Shown here one piece after another: positions 10,779 to 45,126 of a stretch of 64,000 nucleotides of DNA (positions are counted from its first letter, which is position 1; the number at the start of each line of letters is the position of its first letter). The notes beneath the pieces are model-generated. The model was not told the DNA's origin, searched no databases, and saw only the letters and a list, made by a program, of their open reading frames with translations. The stretch is taken from contig JBAZRE010000003.1 in the NCBI GenBank assembly GCA_041663025.1, positions 2,157 to 66,156 of the forward strand, in the 5' to 3' direction. Made by a program: the position numbers and the translations under genes. This DNA comes from Minisyncoccota bacterium (GTDB lineage Bacteria > Patescibacteriota > Minisyncoccia > Phycocordibacterales > Phycocordibacteraceae).

Positions 10779-11375
10779 ATGGACTTTGCATCGAAAAACC
10801 TTACGGCTGGTCAGTTAAACGCAATCGTGAAAAAACTCGGCGGTGAAGAAATGGCTTTACGATTTCTTCGTGATGAGCTTACGGTTTCTGAACCGATTGC
10901 GAAAAAACTTCTCAACTTTGTCACCACGACCAACGTTTCCGAAGTCACCTCGTTCATCGTCAAGGACAAATTCCGCGAAGGTAAGACGACCGACGGCGTG
11001 AAAATCGCATGGCTTGGTTCCAACTTCAAAGAAAACTTCCTTGGCAAAACGGAACGGGGTATCGCTTCGGCGACACTTCGTATCCAGAAGCTAACGAAAG
11101 ACTCTTTGGACGCCCCGATTCTGACAGAACTTGGCGATACGGCGGAAACGACACTTGCACAACTCTGGGAACTGATGAAGCTGCAGGGCTCCGGCCAAGA
11201 AGGAAAACTCCTCGTTAACGGTTGGGCGAATATCGTCTATATCCGCGACAAGAACGAAAACCTCTGGGCCGTGTACGCGCGCTGGAGCTCCGGCAGCGAC
11301 GGGTGGGTCGTTGGAGCCTATTCGGTCGAGAGCCCGGGTAGGTGGGGTGCCGACTTTCAGGTCGTCTCCCGCTGA
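10779..11375 (+). CDS. DGR-1 target (variable) protein; C-terminal 37 aa encoded by the variable repeat
   Basis: 198 aa with no signal peptide. The C-terminus ...LWAVYARWSSGSDGWVVGAYSVESPGRWGADFQVVSR is encoded by VR1, which matches TR1 except at TR adenines. Confidence 0.8.
   Translation: MDFASKNLTAGQLNAIVKKLGGEEMALRFLRDELTVSEPIAKKLLNFVTTTNVSEVTSFIVKDKFREGKTTDGVKIAWLGSNFKENFLGKTERGIASATLRIQKLTKDSLDAPILTELGDTAETTLAQLWELMKLQGSGQEGKLLVNGWANIVYIRDKNENLWAVYARWSSGSDGWVVGAYSVESPGRWGADFQVVSR
11262..11374 (+). repeat. DGR-1 variable repeat (VR1), 113 bp
   Basis: Aligns base-for-base with TR1 (11688-11800). I count 17 mismatches, and every one is A in TR1 versus T, G or C in VR1. Confidence 0.9.
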
Positions 11376-11405
11376 TTCTTTTCAACTCTGATCTTTTTGA
11401 ACCTT

Positions 11406-11456
11406 AGACCCTTTGAATCTTTGCCATTTTGGCATTGAAACGAAGGGTCTTTTGTT
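11406..11456 (+). terminator. Intrinsic terminator after DGR-1 target gene
   Basis: agaccctt...gccattttggc...aagggtct nested hairpin followed by TTTTGTT. Confidence 0.55.
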
Positions 11457-11687
11457 ATAATAAAAACAAGGATGTCTTGGGTGCGGCGAGCATGCTCTTC
11501 GCACAGCGCCTTGGGAAATCAGTACTCCAGAATTGTGTCGAGCATGCTCGCCATGAGCGCGGGTACGATTGTCCAAAAAAAGATTAGAATCGGTGTGCGA
11601 TGTTGGTGGACTTTGATGTCCCGAATCAGGTACAACCTTGAGAGTATTCAAGAGGTGGTGGTATGGATGGCATCACACACAAACGTG

Positions 11688-11800
11688 CTCTGGGCCGTGA
11701 ACGCGAACTGGAACTCCGGCAACGACGGGTGGAACGTTGAAGCCAATTCGGTCGAGAACCCGAATAGGTGGAGTGCCGACAATCAGGTCGTCTCCCGCAA
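11688..11800 (+). repeat. DGR-1 template repeat (TR1), 113 bp
   Basis: Asn-codon (AAC) rich copy of VR1. Reading frame LWAVNANWNSGNDGWNVEANSVENPNRWSADNQVVSR. Followed by a hairpin plus T-run at 11812-11840. Confidence 0.9.
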
Positions 11801-12208
11801 CTCTCGTCTTTTCCCGTCTCCACTTGGAGGCGGGTTTTTCGCTATAATACCTCTCTTCCATCCACCGACCATGCGTCCTATTTCTTCAACATCTTTCCCG
11901 AGTGATATAAAATGGCTCTGCGCCATGAGTCCTGATTCCCACGCGATTTGGATAAAGAAGCGAACAGCATCAACAGCACGAATTGCTTCTTCAAGTGGGG
12001 GCAATTTTTGGTCGATCGATGCGTATGCGGTTTTACGTAGTGCGTCTAATAAGTTAAGCCAGAGCTTGTCGATCCGGTCACCAATACCGAAGCGCTCTGA
12101 ACGCGCCATTTTCCGATGAGCGACGAGCCAAATTTTGTAAGCGACTTTAGCTCGCTCAATCACCGGCAAAAGCTTCTGGGGGGGGGTTACTTCTAGGAAG
12201 AAATTCAC
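11783..12208 (-). CDS. avd: Avd-like accessory variability determinant (four-helix-bundle protein, 23S rRNA IVS protein family)
   Basis: 141 aa with heptad-rich helical pattern FGIGDRIDKLWLNLLDALRK...EEIGRMVGGWKRG resembling phage BPP-1 Avd and PF05635 proteins. It lies between TR1 and the RT but on the opposite strand. Its N-terminus overlaps the poly-G tract as poly-Pro. Confidence 0.7.
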   Translation of the reverse strand: MNFFLEVTPPQKLLPVIERAKVAYKIWLVAHRKMARSERFGIGDRIDKLWLNLLDALRKTAYASIDQKLPPLEEAIRAVDAVRFFIQIAWESGLMAQSHFISLGKDVEEIGRMVGGWKRGIIAKNPPPSGDGKRRELRETT

Positions 12209-13187
12209 TCATACGTATGAGAGTATCATTTCGGTTGAAAATATTCTCGGCGCGTGGCGAGAATTTATAAAAGGGAAGAGGAAACGTACTGACGTACAAG
12301 AATTTGAAAGATATTTGATGCATAACGTTTTAGAACTGCACCAAGAACTCGTGGCAGGCACCTATCAACATGGCGGCTATCACCATTTCAAGATCAGCGA
12401 CCCCAAGCCGCGCGACATTCATAAAGCGAGTGTGCGTGACCGACTGGTACACCACGCTCTTTATCGTCAACTCTATCCATTTTTTGACAAAACGTTCATC
12501 AGCGATTCGTATTCATGCCGAAGAGAGAAGGGGACACATAAGGCGATGAACCGCTTCAGAGCCTTTGCGCGCAAGGTTTCTAAAAATAATACGCGCACCT
12601 GTTGGGTGTTGAAGTGCGATATCAGAAAATTCTTCGCATCTATCGATCAAGCCAAACTCATACAGATTCTTAAACAGCGAATATCAGACGAACGCATTGT
12701 CCAGCTTGTTGAGAAAGTCATCACGAGTTTCTCAAGTACTGAAAAAGGGAAGGGTCTACCACTCGGGAACCTCACCTCACAACTCCTCGTAAACATCTAT
12801 ATGAACAAGTTTGATCAGTTTGTTAAACATGAGCTAAAAGCAAAGCATTATATTCGCTACGCTGATGACTTTGTATTTTTATCATCCGACCGTTCATTTC
12901 TTACCTCACTTTTGCCCCTTATTCATAATTTTCTACATGACCATCTCGCTCTTGAGTTACATCCAGGTAAGGTCTCTATCAACACGCTTGCATCCGGCAT
13001 TGATTTCCTCGGCTGGGTGCATTTTCCAGACCATCGCGTTTTACGCACCTCTACCAAAAAGCGGATGTTCCGGCGTATTATAGAAACGAAAAGTAGGAAA
13101 GAAACAGTGCAGTCATATCTCGGCCTCTTGAGTCATGGCAACACACATAAACTGCAATCAGTTGCATTTTCTGACTACAACCTATAA
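12150..13187 (+). CDS. DGR reverse transcriptase (copy 1). Track ORF starts at TTG 12315, but the conserved RT N-terminus is in frame from 12150 with no ATG/GTG/TTG
   Basis: LPLGNLTSQLLVNIY is the DGR-specific [IVL]GxxxSQ motif (replacing QGxxxSP). RYADDFVF is the YxDD active site. Upstream in-frame codons encode ...KKFTHTYESIISVENILGAWREFIKGKRKRTDVQEFERYL, the conserved N-terminal extension of DGR RTs. Confidence 0.85.
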   Translation, partial: ARSITGKSFWGGVTSRKKFTHTYESIISVENILGAWREFIKGKRKRTDVQEFERYLMHNVLELHQELVAGTYQHGGYHHFKISDPKPRDIHKASVRDRLVHHALYRQLYPFFDKTFISDSYSCRREKGTHKAMNRFRAFARKVSKNNTRTCWVLKCDIRKFFASIDQAKLIQILKQRISDERIVQLVEKVITSFSSTEKGKGLPLGNLTSQLLVNIYMNKFDQFVKHELKAKHYIRYADDFVFLSSDRSFLTSLLPLIHNFLHDHLALELHPGKVSINTLASGIDFLGWVHFPDHRVLRTSTKKRMFRRIIETKSRKETVQSYLGLLSHGNTHKLQSVAFSDYNL

Positions 13188-13210: not shown

Positions 13211-13477
13211 ATGGCAATTACCAGTTCAGCAAAGAAGGCGATCCGCTCCTCGGGGCGGAAGCATGTCTTTAACCTGCGTCGCAAGGGGGCGCTTCATGAC
13301 ACGACTAAGTCGTTCACCAAAGCGCTTGCTGCCAAGGATGTGAAGGGTGCAGAAAAGCTCCTCCCCGCAGCCTATAAGGCAATCGACAAGGCCTGCAAGA
13401 GTGGGATCATCAAGAGCAACACCGCAGATCGCAAGAAGGCGCGTCTCGCCGCCTCAATCAAACGCGCACAAGCGTAA
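13211..13477 (+). CDS. rpsT: 30S ribosomal protein S20
   Basis: 88 aa. MAITSSAKKAIRSSGRKHVFNLRRK...KARLAASIKRAQA is the typical S20 basic helical protein. Confidence 0.85.
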   Translation: MAITSSAKKAIRSSGRKHVFNLRRKGALHDTTKSFTKALAAKDVKGAEKLLPAAYKAIDKACKSGIIKSNTADRKKARLAASIKRAQA

Positions 13478-13487
13478 ACTCAAAAAG

Positions 13488-13559
13488 TGCCCTCGACAGG
13501 AATCGAACCTGTACCACCTCCTTCGGAGGGAGATATTGTATCCATTCAACTACGAGGGC
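13488..13559 (-). tRNA. tRNA-Arg (anticodon CCG)
   Basis: Reverse complement GCCCTCGTAGTTGAATGGATACAATATCTCCCTCCGAAGGAGGTGGTACAGGTTCGATTCCTGTCGAGGGCA. Anticodon stem TCTCC/GGAGG with loop CTCCGAA. Confidence 0.8.
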
Positions 13560-13757: not shown

Positions 13758-13805
13758 GCACAGAAATAGAAAACACCGCGCAGGCGGTGTTTTCTATTTC
13801 TGTGC
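13758..13805. terminator. Perfect 22 bp-stem hairpin abutting the 3' end of tRNA-Arg(GCG); likely terminator or processing signal
   Basis: gcacagaaatagaaaacaccgc / gcag / gcggtgttttctatttctgtgc. The last 3 nt are the tRNA 3' end. Confidence 0.5.
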
Positions 13806-13875
13806 CCCCACGAGGAATCGAACCTCGATTACGACCTCCGCAAGGTCGCGTCCTGATCCGTTGAACGACAGGGGC
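13803..13875 (-). tRNA. tRNA-Arg with anticodon read as GCG (unusual isoacceptor, tentative)
   Basis: Reverse complement GCCCCTGTCGTTCAACGGATCAGGACGCGACCTTGCGGAGGTCGTAATCGAGGTTCGATTCCTCGTGGGGGCA. Anticodon stem CGACC/GGTCG with loop TTGCGGA. T-arm CGAGG/CCTCG. Acceptor has two G-U pairs. Confidence 0.6.
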
Positions 13876-29172: not shown

Positions 29173-29203
29173 GAAAAGGCGCTTTTGAGGCGCCTTTTTG
29201 TTT
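29173..29203. terminator. Bidirectional intrinsic terminator between rplK (+) and folA (-)
   Basis: aaaaggcgc ttttgag gcgcc tttttgttt: GC stem flanked by A-run upstream and T-run downstream. Confidence 0.6.
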
Positions 29204-42553: not shown

Positions 42554-43252
42554 ATGAAGAAAGACATGTTAGGTTCGATAGTACGCGCGGCAGTGGGTGT
42601 CCCTCAAAATCGGCTTGAAGTGCTCGCCAAAATCGCGAGTGCGATCGCAGAGGACAACCCGAATGGCAACGAGTGGTTCTCTCGTTTCGAGAATCTACTC
42701 AAAGAAGAGTTGTCTTCTAAAACGGCAGTCGTATTCGAGCGCAATGAATATGGCCACATCGTGTTCACGATCACAGGTCTCGATCTCACTGGCGCACAAG
42801 AGATTACACGGCTCACGGATGCAAAGTATCGCATCGGCGACTACGCTAAGCAGATGCTCACGAGCACGAAGCCCGATGGGTATGATGCGAAGCATAGACT
42901 CGTCGCGGGGCAGTCGTACATGATCGTTCTCATTCCTGGTAAGGAGATTGAGAACGACTCCGGCCGCACGACTGCAAATCTGCAGAAGCTCGGTGAAAAG
43001 CTCGGCTACGACAAACCGCTTGCCGGAATCGTCCAGCGCATTCGCGAGGCGGTCTCTGACAAACAGATGGAAGAAATGGGGTTCTGGTATATCGCCGGGC
43101 TTCATAATCCCATCACGGGTGCCGATGGCCGCCCGGGCGTGCTGGGTGCGGGTCGCGACGATGATGGTCGTTGGCTCTTCGGCTATTGGGGCATTCCCGA
43201 TGGTCATTGGGACGGCGATGGCGCGTTCGCCTTCGTCCTCCCTGCAAGTTAG
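42554..43252 (+). CDS. DGR-2 target (variable) protein; C-terminal ~45 aa encoded by VR2
   Basis: 232 aa with no signal peptide. C-terminus ...ADGRPGVLGAGRDDDGRWLFGYWGIPDGHWDGDGAFAFVLPAS is encoded by VR2. Confidence 0.8.
   Translation: MKKDMLGSIVRAAVGVPQNRLEVLAKIASAIAEDNPNGNEWFSRFENLLKEELSSKTAVVFERNEYGHIVFTITGLDLTGAQEITRLTDAKYRIGDYAKQMLTSTKPDGYDAKHRLVAGQSYMIVLIPGKEIENDSGRTTANLQKLGEKLGYDKPLAGIVQRIREAVSDKQMEEMGFWYIAGLHNPITGADGRPGVLGAGRDDDGRWLFGYWGIPDGHWDGDGAFAFVLPAS
43112..43247 (+). repeat. DGR-2 variable repeat (VR2), 136 bp
   Basis: Aligns with TR2 (43579-43714). I count 22 mismatches, and all are TR adenine to G/T/C in VR. Confidence 0.9.
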
Positions 43253-43302
43253 AACTTGTACCTTCGAATCTTAGGGCTTGCCCTTGGATTCTTAACTCTT
43301 AA

Positions 43303-43328
43303 TCCCGCACTTTAGTGCGGGATTTTGT
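43303..43328 (+). terminator. Intrinsic terminator after DGR-2 target gene
   Basis: cccgcac ttta gtgcggg followed by ATTTTGTT. Confidence 0.6.
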
Positions 43329-43578
43329 TATATTGAAAGAGGTAGTAGGTGAATACGCGGGCGATCACTAGAGCACTAGAGCAATCTTAGGTTTCTCGCT
43401 ACCGAGGCCAGTATCCGTACATTGAGAGCCTGTTAGATTACGGTTTAATAGGGGGGATGTATGCAGACACTTCAAAAATGAAGATACTTGGTGCGCTCGC
43501 TTGGTCCATTTCGATGGCAGATACGATTCAACTCGGAGAGTATTCTATGGGTGGTGGCATTGATGAGCGAGCGTACAA

Positions 43579-43714
43579 ATCACGGATGCCGATGGCAACC
43601 CGAACGTGCTGAATGCGAATCGCAACGATGATGGTCAATGGCTCAACAGCTATTGGGACAATCCCGATAATCATTGGAACGACAATGGCGCGTTCGCCTT
43701 CGTCCTCCCTGCAA
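43579..43714 (+). repeat. DGR-2 template repeat (TR2), 136 bp
   Basis: AAC-rich (ADGNPNVLNANRNDDGQWLNSYWDNPDNHWNDNGAFAFVLPA). Followed by hairpin ctcgctcgt...acgagcgag plus TTTTGTTTTG at 43726-43760. Confidence 0.9.
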
Positions 43715-43738
43715 CTCTCTTCATTTCTCGCTCGTACC

Positions 43739-44089
43739 TCACGGCACGAGCGAGTTTTGTTTTGTGAGCTGACCATTCCAACCGCCAAGCATCTTGCCGA
43801 TTTCTTCGAGCGGAATGGAGAGTGCAACATATTCTTTCGTCTCAAGCGATTTGGTCTCCCAGAGAATCAACAGAAATATTTTCAACGTTTCAAGCTTGCG
43901 TATGGCGAGCCGCACCCATGGTTGCTTCTCGGTTTTTGAGAGGAATGTTGCGCTCGCGACTGCCTCAATCAGTGTGACAAATTCTGCATCTATCTTGCCA
44001 CCGAGCGTATAGCGATGAGTCTTAGGGATTGTCTGATAAAATGTATACCATAGGATATACGCATGCTTAATTCTCTCCAAAACAGGCAA
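43739..44089 (-). CDS. avd: Avd-like accessory variability determinant (copy 2)
   Basis: 116 aa starting at TTG. IPKTHRYTLGGKIDAEFVTLIEA...EEIGKMLGGWNGQL matches avd1 and the BPP-1 Avd pattern. Antisense to TR2 and RT2. Confidence 0.7.
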   Translation of the reverse strand: MPVLERIKHAYILWYTFYQTIPKTHRYTLGGKIDAEFVTLIEAVASATFLSKTEKQPWVRLAIRKLETLKIFLLILWETKSLETKEYVALSIPLEEIGKMLGGWNGQLTKQNSLVP

Positions 44090-45126
44090 GAGCTTCTGGG
44101 GGGGGGGTTACTTCTAGGAAGAAATTCACTCATTCATCCGAGCATATCATTTCAGTTGAAAATTTACTCGGAGCGTGGCAAGAATTTATAAGGGGCAAAC
44201 GCAAACGTGATGACGTACAAGAATTCGAACGGTATTTGATGCACAATGTTTTAGAATTGCATCGCGAGCTTGCTGCTGGCACCTATAAACACGGCGGCTA
44301 CCATCACTTTAAGATCAGCGACCCGAAACCACGCGATATTCATAAAGCGAGCGTGCGAGATCGGCTCATTCATCACGCTCTCTATCGCCAACTTTATCCA
44401 TTCTTTGACCGTACATTCATACTAGACTCGTATTCGTGCCGCCTCAACAGAGGCACTCATCGGGCGATGAACCGCTTTCGAGCTTTCGCATATCAAGTAT
44501 CTAAAAACGACACGTGCACTTGCTGGGTTCTCAAATGCGATATACGAAAGTTCTTCGCTTCCATCGATCAAGAAATATTGATGGAGATTATTAGTACCTA
44601 TATATCAGATAAACGCATCTGTGTACTTATCCAAAATATCATCACCAGCTTCAACTCTTGTGCAACAAGGAAGGGTTTGCCACTCGGGAACCTTACCTCG
44701 CAACTGCTTGTGAATATCTATATGGGTGAATTTGACCAGTTTGTTAAACATAAACTAAAAGTGAAGTATTATATCCGCTACGCAGACGACTTTGTGATTC
44801 TTTCTGCTAACAAAAATTATTTGTTGCGAGTACTACCATATATGGAAGCATTTTTGCATGACCAACTAAAGCTCAGTCTGCATCCAGACAAAGTATTCAT
44901 AAGAACCCTTGCCTCAGGGATTGATTTTCTTGGTTGGATGCATCGCCCCAATTATCGCGTATTACGGACGGCAACCAAAAATAGGATGTTCCGCACGATC
45001 AAAAAGAGCGAAGGGAAGCCTGAAGTGCTGCACTCTTATCTTGGCATGTTGAGTCATGGAAACACACAGAGACTTCAAGAGAAAGCAATTTCTTTCGCAA
45101 ATATGCTAGGATGCCCGTATGGATAA
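44071..45126 (+). CDS. DGR reverse transcriptase (copy 2). Track ORF starts at TTG 44236; conserved N-terminal coding is in frame from 44071 without a canonical start
   Basis: LPLGNLTSQLLVNIY ([IVL]GxxxSQ) and RYADDFVIL. About 75% aa identity to RT1. Upstream in-frame ...KKFTHSSEHIISVENLLGAWQEFIRGKRKRDDVQEFERYL. Confidence 0.85.
   Translation, partial: FSPKQARASGGGVTSRKKFTHSSEHIISVENLLGAWQEFIRGKRKRDDVQEFERYLMHNVLELHRELAAGTYKHGGYHHFKISDPKPRDIHKASVRDRLIHHALYRQLYPFFDRTFILDSYSCRLNRGTHRAMNRFRAFAYQVSKNDTCTCWVLKCDIRKFFASIDQEILMEIISTYISDKRICVLIQNIITSFNSCATRKGLPLGNLTSQLLVNIYMGEFDQFVKHKLKVKYYIRYADDFVILSANKNYLLRVLPYMEAFLHDQLKLSLHPDKVFIRTLASGIDFLGWMHRPNYRVLRTATKNRMFRTIKKSEGKPEVLHSYLGMLSHGNTQRLQEKAISFANMLGCPYG

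Follow-up and report, generated by a model that had tools for sequence, protein, structure and literature searches.

The 64-kb window analysed here comprises 64,000 nucleotides of contig JBAZRE010000003.1 from a Minisyncoccota bacterium, and all window positions below refer to it. It contains two cassettes, C1 and C2, of diversity-generating retroelements (DGRs). We consider that these are two active chromosomal DGR cassettes of the type found in candidate phyla radiation (CPR) bacteria and that each includes a self-contained gene for the RNA carrying the template repeat (TR). This is our best explanation of the region taken in full, and we hold it to be somewhat better than an even proposition. 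The TR most likely belongs to a discrete RNA of ~370–425 nt, whose termination is predicted from the sequence. Our analysis established the anatomy of the cassettes, its conservation among relatives, the covariation of the RNA elements, and the adenine-specific differences between the TR and the variable repeat (VR) of the target gene.

Anatomy of the two cassettes

Both cassettes have the same order: a target gene containing the VR (+ strand), a terminator, the TR (+), a GC hairpin followed by a U-run, avd (−), and the reverse transcriptase (RT) gene (+). In C1, target gene 1 (10779–11375, + strand, 198 aa, VR1 at 11262–11372), which had no Pfam or NCBIfam match, is followed by a terminator hairpin on the + strand that can be read from the sequence (11407–11456, GACCCTT...AAGGGTC plus TTTTGTT). 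TR1 (11688–11800, +), avd1 (11783–12169, −) and RT1 (12222–13187, +) come next. In C2, target gene 2 (42554–43252, +, 232 aa, VR2 at 43112–43247) is followed by its terminator (43301–43324 plus a T-run, + strand, the whole element spanning 43301–43334), TR2 (43579–43714, +), avd2 (43739–44089, −, start TTG 44089) and RT2 (44143–45126, +). A first-pass annotation of this DNA had described this order with an antisense avd converging on the TR (11783–12208 and 43739–44089, both on the minus strand) and a 3′ overlap of ~18 nt between TR1 and avd1. Every element was found at the position given there, both minus-strand frames matched Avd profiles, and the avd1 stop codon (11783–11785) lies 18 nt within TR1. 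The avd2 stop codon falls in the loop of the hairpin that follows TR2.

The identity of these elements rests on several observations. First, all 15 mismatches between TR1 and VR1 and all 22 between TR2 and VR2 lie at TR adenines on the + strand; because adenine-only mismatches are the DGR signature, both elements have been active. We take this adenine-specific divergence of the VRs to be the visible footprint of mutagenic retrohoming in C1 and C2. VR1 and VR2 finish 3 and 5 nt ahead of the stop codons of their target genes. Second, both RTs matched RVT_1 (E 4e-24 and 4e-23), and RT1 is 34.8% identical to the bRT of Bordetella phage BPP-1 across 97% of its length (E 1e-50). Third, the Pfam bAvd profile matched avd1 with E 9.7e-9 and a score of 36.1, below the gathering cut-off of 40, and avd2 with E 2.4e-11 and a score of 44.5, above it. 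The NCBIfam model NF033474 ('DGR protein Avd') matched both frames over its full length at 52 and 60 bits, against a curated cut-off of 80. The avd1 frame is open back to GTG 12208, and its start is most likely TTG 12169, because the NF033474 match begins only at residue 14, the counterpart of the start of avd2. A PDB sequence search with the Avd pair gave no match.

In the interval separating the VR end from the target terminator, short motifs (among them CTTAG, CCTTTGA and CCTTGGA) recur at many loci, within 11376–11450 and 43253–43300 of the window. These might be related to target-site recognition.

Gene order in related cassettes and in the literature

An RT-based scan of species-representative genomes yielded 14 loci, all from Patescibacteria (CPR), among them Kaiser-, Yanofsky-, Vogel-, Taylor- and Falkowbacteria and Paceibacterota. 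A metagenome scan yielded more than 486 loci, of which 80 were kept; many of the loci come from the Hainich and Rifle samples, and the relatives are numbered L001–L094. In all 84 cassettes with a findable Avd homologue, avd lies on the strand opposite to the RT gene; 12 further loci without upstream DNA were left out of this count. A TR/VR pair could be detected in 61 non-redundant cassettes, and in every one of them the TR lies on the RT strand and abuts the 3′ end of avd.

The first-pass annotation had called this architecture non-canonical. The order is real, but in CPR bacteria it is not unusual. It is the architecture B3, TR-(avd)-RT, of 90% of CPR DGRs (Wu et al. 2018, NAR, PMC5758913), and C1, C2 and the 84 related cassettes all have its core order of TR, reverse-strand avd and RT. 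A cell-encoded DGR clade restricted to Patescibacteria (clade 2), with targets lacking recognisable domains, has also been described (Roux et al. 2021, PMC8144416), and B3 corresponds to it. Our cassettes share with B3 and clade 2 the order and orientation, the CPR hosts, the targets without recognisable domains and the chromosomal location, and do not differ from them in gene order. The antisense-avd order is thus the norm for the CPR lineage and is already published, as is a post-TR stem-loop, so that the finding as first framed mostly restates a published architecture. The surveys of Wu et al. and Roux et al. describe no post-TR terminator, no 5′ leader and no repeat tract between avd and RT; the terminator screen of Wu et al. 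was confined to the region after the VR and the initiation of mutagenic homing site (PMC5758913). In the searchable literature, the coverage of which is incomplete, we found no description of the U-run, the -10 box after the target terminator, the covarying leader or the duplex between leader and TR flank. What appears to be new here, and is directly testable, comprises the terminator-like U-run, the covarying 5′ leader, the leader:flank duplex and the avd-RT repeat tract.

A stem-loop and U-run after the TR

Hairpin 1 (11813–11834) has 9 bp and the loop ACUU, a folding energy of -17.4 kcal/mol (z -3.8), and is followed by T5. Hairpin 2 (43727–43754; -21.6 kcal/mol, z -3.4) is followed by TTTTGTTTT. 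Of the 61 non-redundant windows taken after the TR in relatives, 59 have a terminator-like element, namely a stable hairpin directly before a T-rich tail; among random windows the share is 6.6%. Plain MAFFT alignment followed by RNAalifold recovered 6 pairs in this region because of register shifts, and an alignment to a covariance model that spans flank, hairpin and U-run was used instead. This model gave one match per locus, always on the + strand after the TR; in the 64-kb window it matched the two post-TR sites (TR1 3′ flank at 11801–11839, 48 bits, comprising a conserved motif, GTCTTTT at 11806–11812, the stem-loop and T5; TR2 3′ flank at 43715–43763, 49 bits, comprising the strand TCTTCATTT at 43718–43726, the stem-loop and TTTTGTTTT) and, weakly, the target-2 terminator. 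In the model-based alignment, pairing holds in 98.4% of stem cells and double changes occur at 7 of 9 pairs; compensatory cells number 72, where shuffles give 14.6, and the closing CUC/GAG of the stem is invariant.

The element has the features of an intrinsic terminator: a GC-rich stem-loop directly precedes a U-tract on the transcribed strand. It also has the shape of the gene terminators of this window (at 29178, 31420, 35052, 43303 and 49560), which consist of a 7–9 bp GC stem, a tetraloop and TTTTGT. In this family, the tail after the stem-loop has the form U4-5(N)U3-4 and is followed by the antisense avd. We considered that the U-run might be conserved for the sake of the protein, as the K-Q-N tail of Avd, and rejected this explanation. 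The antisense of the U-run is translated in at least two avd frames (35, 12 and 1 loci), the Avd tails are otherwise unrelated, and the avd stop codon lies past the hairpin, on its TR side, in 35 of 48 loci and within the hairpin in 13. The constraint therefore acts on the nucleic acid and not on the protein. From these features, the stem-loop plus U-run is most likely an intrinsic terminator that ends the TR RNA.

In many of these 35 relatives, the avd stop TGA is the antisense of a conserved post-TR motif, UUCAUUUCUC (43720–43729 of the window), and the Avd tails read ...GEK*.

The hairpin is probably not a terminator only. In Bordetella, the 33 nt that directly follow the TR fold into a stem-loop of 11 bp capped by a tetraloop, which is bound by all five Avd protomers (Handa et al., bioRxiv 10.1101/2023.10.23.563531). 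The same work predicted post-TR stem-loops, most often with 9 bp and tetraloops, for 207 of 278 DGRs that contain Avd, with CPR examples among them. The hairpins of C1 and C2 match this class in position, size and tetraloop, and by this analogy the post-TR stem-loop is probably the counterpart of the Avd-binding stem-loop of Bordetella.

The leader and the predicted extent of the TR RNA

Between the target terminator and the TR lies a stretch of 250–480 nt that is conserved in the family. A leader profile hidden Markov model (HMM) built from C2 had one + strand match in each of the 75 loci with upstream DNA, and within the window it matched only 43337–43609 and 11519–11712. On the HMM alignment, RNAalifold gave several leader helices, in which a single position shows as many as six pair types. 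We examined the 3′ domain of the leader in a plain MAFFT alignment of 42 sequences with a hand-named structure. It contains a 12-bp long-range helix closing a three-way junction just before the TR, and two hairpins, one having a UNCG-like loop and the other GAGUAUUC at its tip. Pairing in this domain holds in 95.1% of cells against 76.3% when shuffled (reached in 0 of 500 shuffles), and drops to 32–49% when the partner columns are slid; there are 251 compensatory cells against 68 in shuffles, and 21 of 26 pairs have changes on both sides. This covariation argues that the ~250-nt leader is a real structured RNA. At both gathering and E-value thresholds, neither the leader nor the hairpin nor the avd-RT junction matched Rfam, and we regard the leader as a candidate new RNA motif marking CPR-type TRs.

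Where might the RNA begin? In 37 of 46 relatives, a -10 box, often TGn-extended, lies 8–18 nt ahead of the leader start and stands directly after the terminator of the target gene; of the control windows, 20% contain a -10 box. In C1, an extended -10 box, TGTTATAAT (11453–11461, + strand), is the predicted promoter of the TR1 RNA and precedes the leader at 11468–11687 (+; helix H3, 11593–11604 with 11669–11680). In C2, the extended -10 box TGTTATATT (43326–43334, +) overlaps the target 2 terminator and precedes the leader at 43337–43578 (+; helix H3, 43491–43502 with 43565–43576). It is plausible that this box is the promoter of the TR RNA. The predicted TR RNAs would then be ~373 nt (11468–11840) and ~424 nt (43341–43764), with whole-RNA fold z-scores of -2.1 for C1 and -3.4 for C2. 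The separate short RNA proposed in the first-pass annotation thus does look separately promoted and terminated, but it is not short, since it would include a long covarying leader; and the hairpin that was taken there for a terminator is terminator-like, with its conserved U-run, but matches the Avd-binding class as well.

Pairing between the leader and the TR flank

The leader segment AAAUGAAGA pairs with UCUUCAUUU, which is located between the TR and the terminal stem-loop. This leader:flank pairing holds in 87.7% of cells; shuffling the partners between loci gives 78.8 ± 1.0% (at most 81.8% in 1000 shuffles), and sliding them gives 41–51%. The compensatory variants include GUGAG:CUCAC, AAAUC:GAUUU and AAACG:CGUUU. 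In C1, AAAAGAU (11578–11584) pairs with GUCUUUU (11806–11812); in C2, AAATGAAGA (43476–43484) pairs with TCTTCATTT (43718–43726), that is, AAAUGAAG:CUUCAUUU, and the strands of the two cassettes differ in a compensatory manner. Sequences upstream and downstream of the TR are thus joined by a duplex of 9 bp with compensatory changes, the upstream strand of which lies ~95–105 nt before the TR (from this strand to the start of the TR the distance is 104 nt in C1 and 95 nt in C2). A possible extension of the duplex into the end of the TR (UUG:CAA) is conserved in sequence and has no covariation.

A further pairing, of GAGAGU before the TR with ACUCUC after it, was dropped, since the variants ACUUAC and ACUCAC are uncompensated; GAGAGUAUUC forms a local hairpin tip instead, with pairs G79-C87 and A80-U86. 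In those relatives in which Avd ends at ...GEK*, the end of the avd frame and the leader-pairing strand share bases on opposite strands.

How is the TR RNA made?

We propose the following scheme, in which we infer that the promoter is used, that the transcript terminates, that Avd binds it and that the proteins act in trans. Transcription of the TR RNA would start at the (often extended) -10 promoter right after the target terminator. The RNA would consist, in order, of the folded ~250-nt leader, the TR, and a short 3′ flank that pairs back to the leader, and would be ended by the 9–12 bp GC stem-loop plus U-run, which would double as an Avd-binding site. RT and Avd, expressed from the head-to-head gene pair downstream, would act on this RNA in trans, and the last 12–25 codons of avd would be the antisense of its 3′ end.

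Several points weigh against this scheme. The C1 leader fits the family profile only from position ~59, and the z-score of the whole C1 RNA is modest. The covariation counts for the terminal stem come from an alignment fitted to the model. The cis-priming RNA of Bordetella (Sp, ~140 nt) sits downstream of the TR, and an RNA ending ~50 nt after the TR would therefore lack the Sp functions, unless the leader supplies them. Lastly, RT and avd have no positioned promoter that we could find, so a transcript reading through from the TR to the RT is possible.

This read-through is the alternative that survives best, although we judge it rather unlikely. The stem-loop would then be a structural, Avd-binding element or a leaky attenuator, and one transcript would run from the TR promoter across the antisense avd into the RT gene. 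Apart from the lack of a positioned RT promoter in our search, only ~30–60 nt separate the starts of avd and RT, too little for two conventional promoters; the stem-loop class has been described as Avd-binding and not as a terminator; and TR and RT are co-transcribed in canonical DGRs. However, the U4(N)U4 tract is kept whatever the avd frame, whereas the Bordetella stem-loop is followed by GGCCUUUCCUC and no U-run, and the element is shaped like the gene terminators of this very genome. Such a transcript would also be antisense to the whole of avd, although RT and Avd are needed together. Moreover, some DGRs have already been noted to need at least two transcription units, and TR and RT need not share a transcript (Wu et al., PMC5758913).

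It is far less probable that the hairpin is mainly a terminator of avd, or a bidirectional one. It does coincide with the avd 3′ end at every locus, and the minus-strand hairpin is stable too (-14 and -26 kcal/mol), but on that strand it is followed by GAGAAAUGAAGAG in C2 or AAAAGACGAG in C1, with no U-run, and in the 35 of 48 loci where the stop codon lies past the hairpin the avd mRNA must traverse it. That the minus-strand frames are not genes and the hairpins are fortuitous, as the sub-threshold Pfam score of avd1 and the empty PDB search might hint, is refuted by the full-length NF033474 matches of both frames, the homologues in place in 84 of 84 cassettes and the covariation of the hairpin.

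A repeat tract between avd and RT

A G9 tract (12178–12186) lies between the avd1 start and the RT1 N-terminus and a G10 tract (44098–44107) between avd2 and RT2, and their flanks are otherwise identical between C1 and C2 over 42 nt. Nearly all relatives have a G-rich simple repeat at this place. The 78 related junctions with such a repeat comprise 71 with poly-G (at least G6), 5 with (GT)n, 1 with (GA)n and 1 with (CTGG)n; in the measured subset, poly-G lengths range from G6 to G12, with a mode of 9–10. The repeat precedes both starts, that of avd by 8–12 nt from the start codon and that of RT typically by 13 nt. In being conserved in position, variable in length and motif, and located in the 5′ region of a gene, it resembles the simple sequence repeats of phase-variable loci. 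Among six pairs of loci with identical flanks, one differed in tract length (L056 and L058, G9 against G10). Exact-protein look-ups for strain variants returned none for avd1, avd2 or glycyl-tRNA synthetase, and for S20 only the same sequence. We found no paper linking DGRs to such repeats.

The starts of the RT genes are also of note here. RT1 (frame open from 12141) and RT2 (frame open from 44071) have no ATG, GTG or TTG before their conserved N-terminus (IISVENILGAW...), which aligns to bRT from residue 12 onward; the first ATG/TTG of RT1 are at 12315/12318, and RT2 has no canonical start before 44236. The RT frames as listed (from 12315 and 44236) are therefore truncated, and the RT1 start at 12318 chosen by gene callers removes ~30 conserved residues. 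There is no canonical RT start after the tract in 20 of 66 loci, C1 and C2 included, and in 19 of these 20 the frame is open through the tract. A change of tract length would bring an upstream ATG into frame in C1 (ATG 12116, with G8 or G11) and in C2 (ATG 44063, with G11 or G8). A ±1 change provides an upstream ATG in 19 of the 20 start-less loci, yet also in 70% of control loci, and a tract-shifted upstream ATG is a weak candidate for the RT start.

The position and variability of the repeat suggest a possible role as a phase-variation switch for the DGR machinery. It could act via the 5′ untranslated regions or, in ~30% of loci including C1 and C2, by shifting the RT frame. A search around the G tract for positioned -10 boxes of RT or avd found none.

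The 64 kb contain a single further G tract of at least 7 nt. This is a G8 at 1432–1439 (C8 on the coding strand), in codons 3–5 of a RuvB-like gene (445–1446, − strand, MSTPPKAS...), and a change in its length would frameshift ruvB.

Comparison with other systems

The BPP-1 system has a homologous RT and a homologous Avd, and the resemblance extends to the RNA. A stem-loop of 9–12 bp, usually with a tetraloop, starts a few nucleotides past the TR, as does the stem-loop of Bordetella-type DGR RNAs (about 9–11 bp), and an upstream strand pairs with a downstream strand, the duplex of C1 and C2 resembling the Bordetella 'cPRT stop'. The differences are equally clear. In BPP-1, avd, TR and brt lie on one strand, and a structured Sp of ~140 nt extends from the TR to brt and includes the primer A56, the cPRT stop, the thumb ring and the RT-binding stem, while just 20 nt upstream of the TR are required (Handa et al. 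2018, PMC6182149). The BPP-1 stem-loop is followed by GGCCUUUCCUCAAUAGG and a structured spacer of 144 nt up to brt, with no U-run. In C1 and C2, in contrast, a U-run comes after the stem-loop, with 350–390 nt of antisense avd coding sequence behind it, and no spacer of the Bordetella type runs into the RT gene; the ~250-nt conserved structure lies upstream of the TR and not downstream; and the upstream strand of the duplex lies ~95–105 nt before the TR and not within 20 nt. The leader may supply the functions of RT recruitment and priming, which would make the TR RNA a permutation of the Bordetella DGR RNA.

A discrete TR RNA has a precedent. In Trichodesmium erythraeum, the TR is transcribed as a discrete RNA from its own promoter, with a main species of 265 nt (Pfreundt et al. 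2014, PMC4143802). The TR RNA proposed here is likewise separate from the RT and has its own predicted promoter. The Trichodesmium system differs in being cyanobacterial, in having many remote targets, and in being established from experimental RNA data, where the TR RNA proposed here is predicted from sequence.

In the msr-msd non-coding RNA of retrons, the structured part is located 5′ of the template, and a strand on the 5′ side forms a duplex with the sequence that flanks the template immediately on its 3′ side; it is at this duplex that priming by retron RTs takes place, from a 2′-OH. The topology of the TR RNA is the same, although we regard this as a resemblance only: the RT here belongs to the DGR clade, and Avd and a VR target are present. 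By analogy with retrons, AAAUGAAGA paired with the TR 3′ flank could position a leader nucleotide as a cis-primer. Taken jointly, a permuted, retron-like template RNA, a terminator that is also the Avd-binding stem-loop, and a G-repeat phase switch on the mutator form a picture that we offer as tentative, with the odds leaning against its being right in every part.

Divergence and genomic setting of C1 and C2

DNA identity between C1 and C2 is ~45% over the leader, TR and avd. At precisely the avd start and the G tract it rises to 80–87%, and it remains high along the 5′ half of the RT gene (12160–12900 against 44085–44830). Protein identity is 30% for the Avds and 72% for the RTs. This step in identity suggests either that the RT genes have undergone gene conversion with each other or that constraint is very unequal. 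The type of Avd and the type of leader and stem-loop appear to be linked, for example in the C1-like relatives L001, L002 and L018, and in the C1 subgroup the first ~58 positions of the leader profile have diverged.

The surroundings of C1 are housekeeping genes, with ruvA and a Mur ligase gene upstream and, directly after RT1, the S20 ribosomal protein gene and two genes for tRNA-Arg (13211–13477, 13487–13559 and 13802–13875). C2 is flanked by the genes for glycyl- and methionyl-tRNA synthetase. Given this location among housekeeping and synthetase genes, both DGRs are chromosomal, with no obvious mobile element.

Implications

To our knowledge, the DGR mechanism is understood almost wholly from BPP-1, in which the RNA that recruits RT and Avd and primes synthesis lies downstream of the TR; and the CPR clade is, as far as we know, one of the largest reservoirs of DGRs, with an uncharacterised RNA. 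If the TR RNA of this clade does run from promoter to terminator with its structure upstream of the TR, the cis-priming rules of Bordetella would not be universal, and the coordinates given here would set the minimal RNA for reconstituting or engineering compact CPR DGRs. The leader would likewise be a new and easily searched RNA motif that marks TRs. If the repeat between avd and RT is an on/off switch on the RT and Avd genes, it would offer these bacteria a simple way to limit the cost of a resident mutator.

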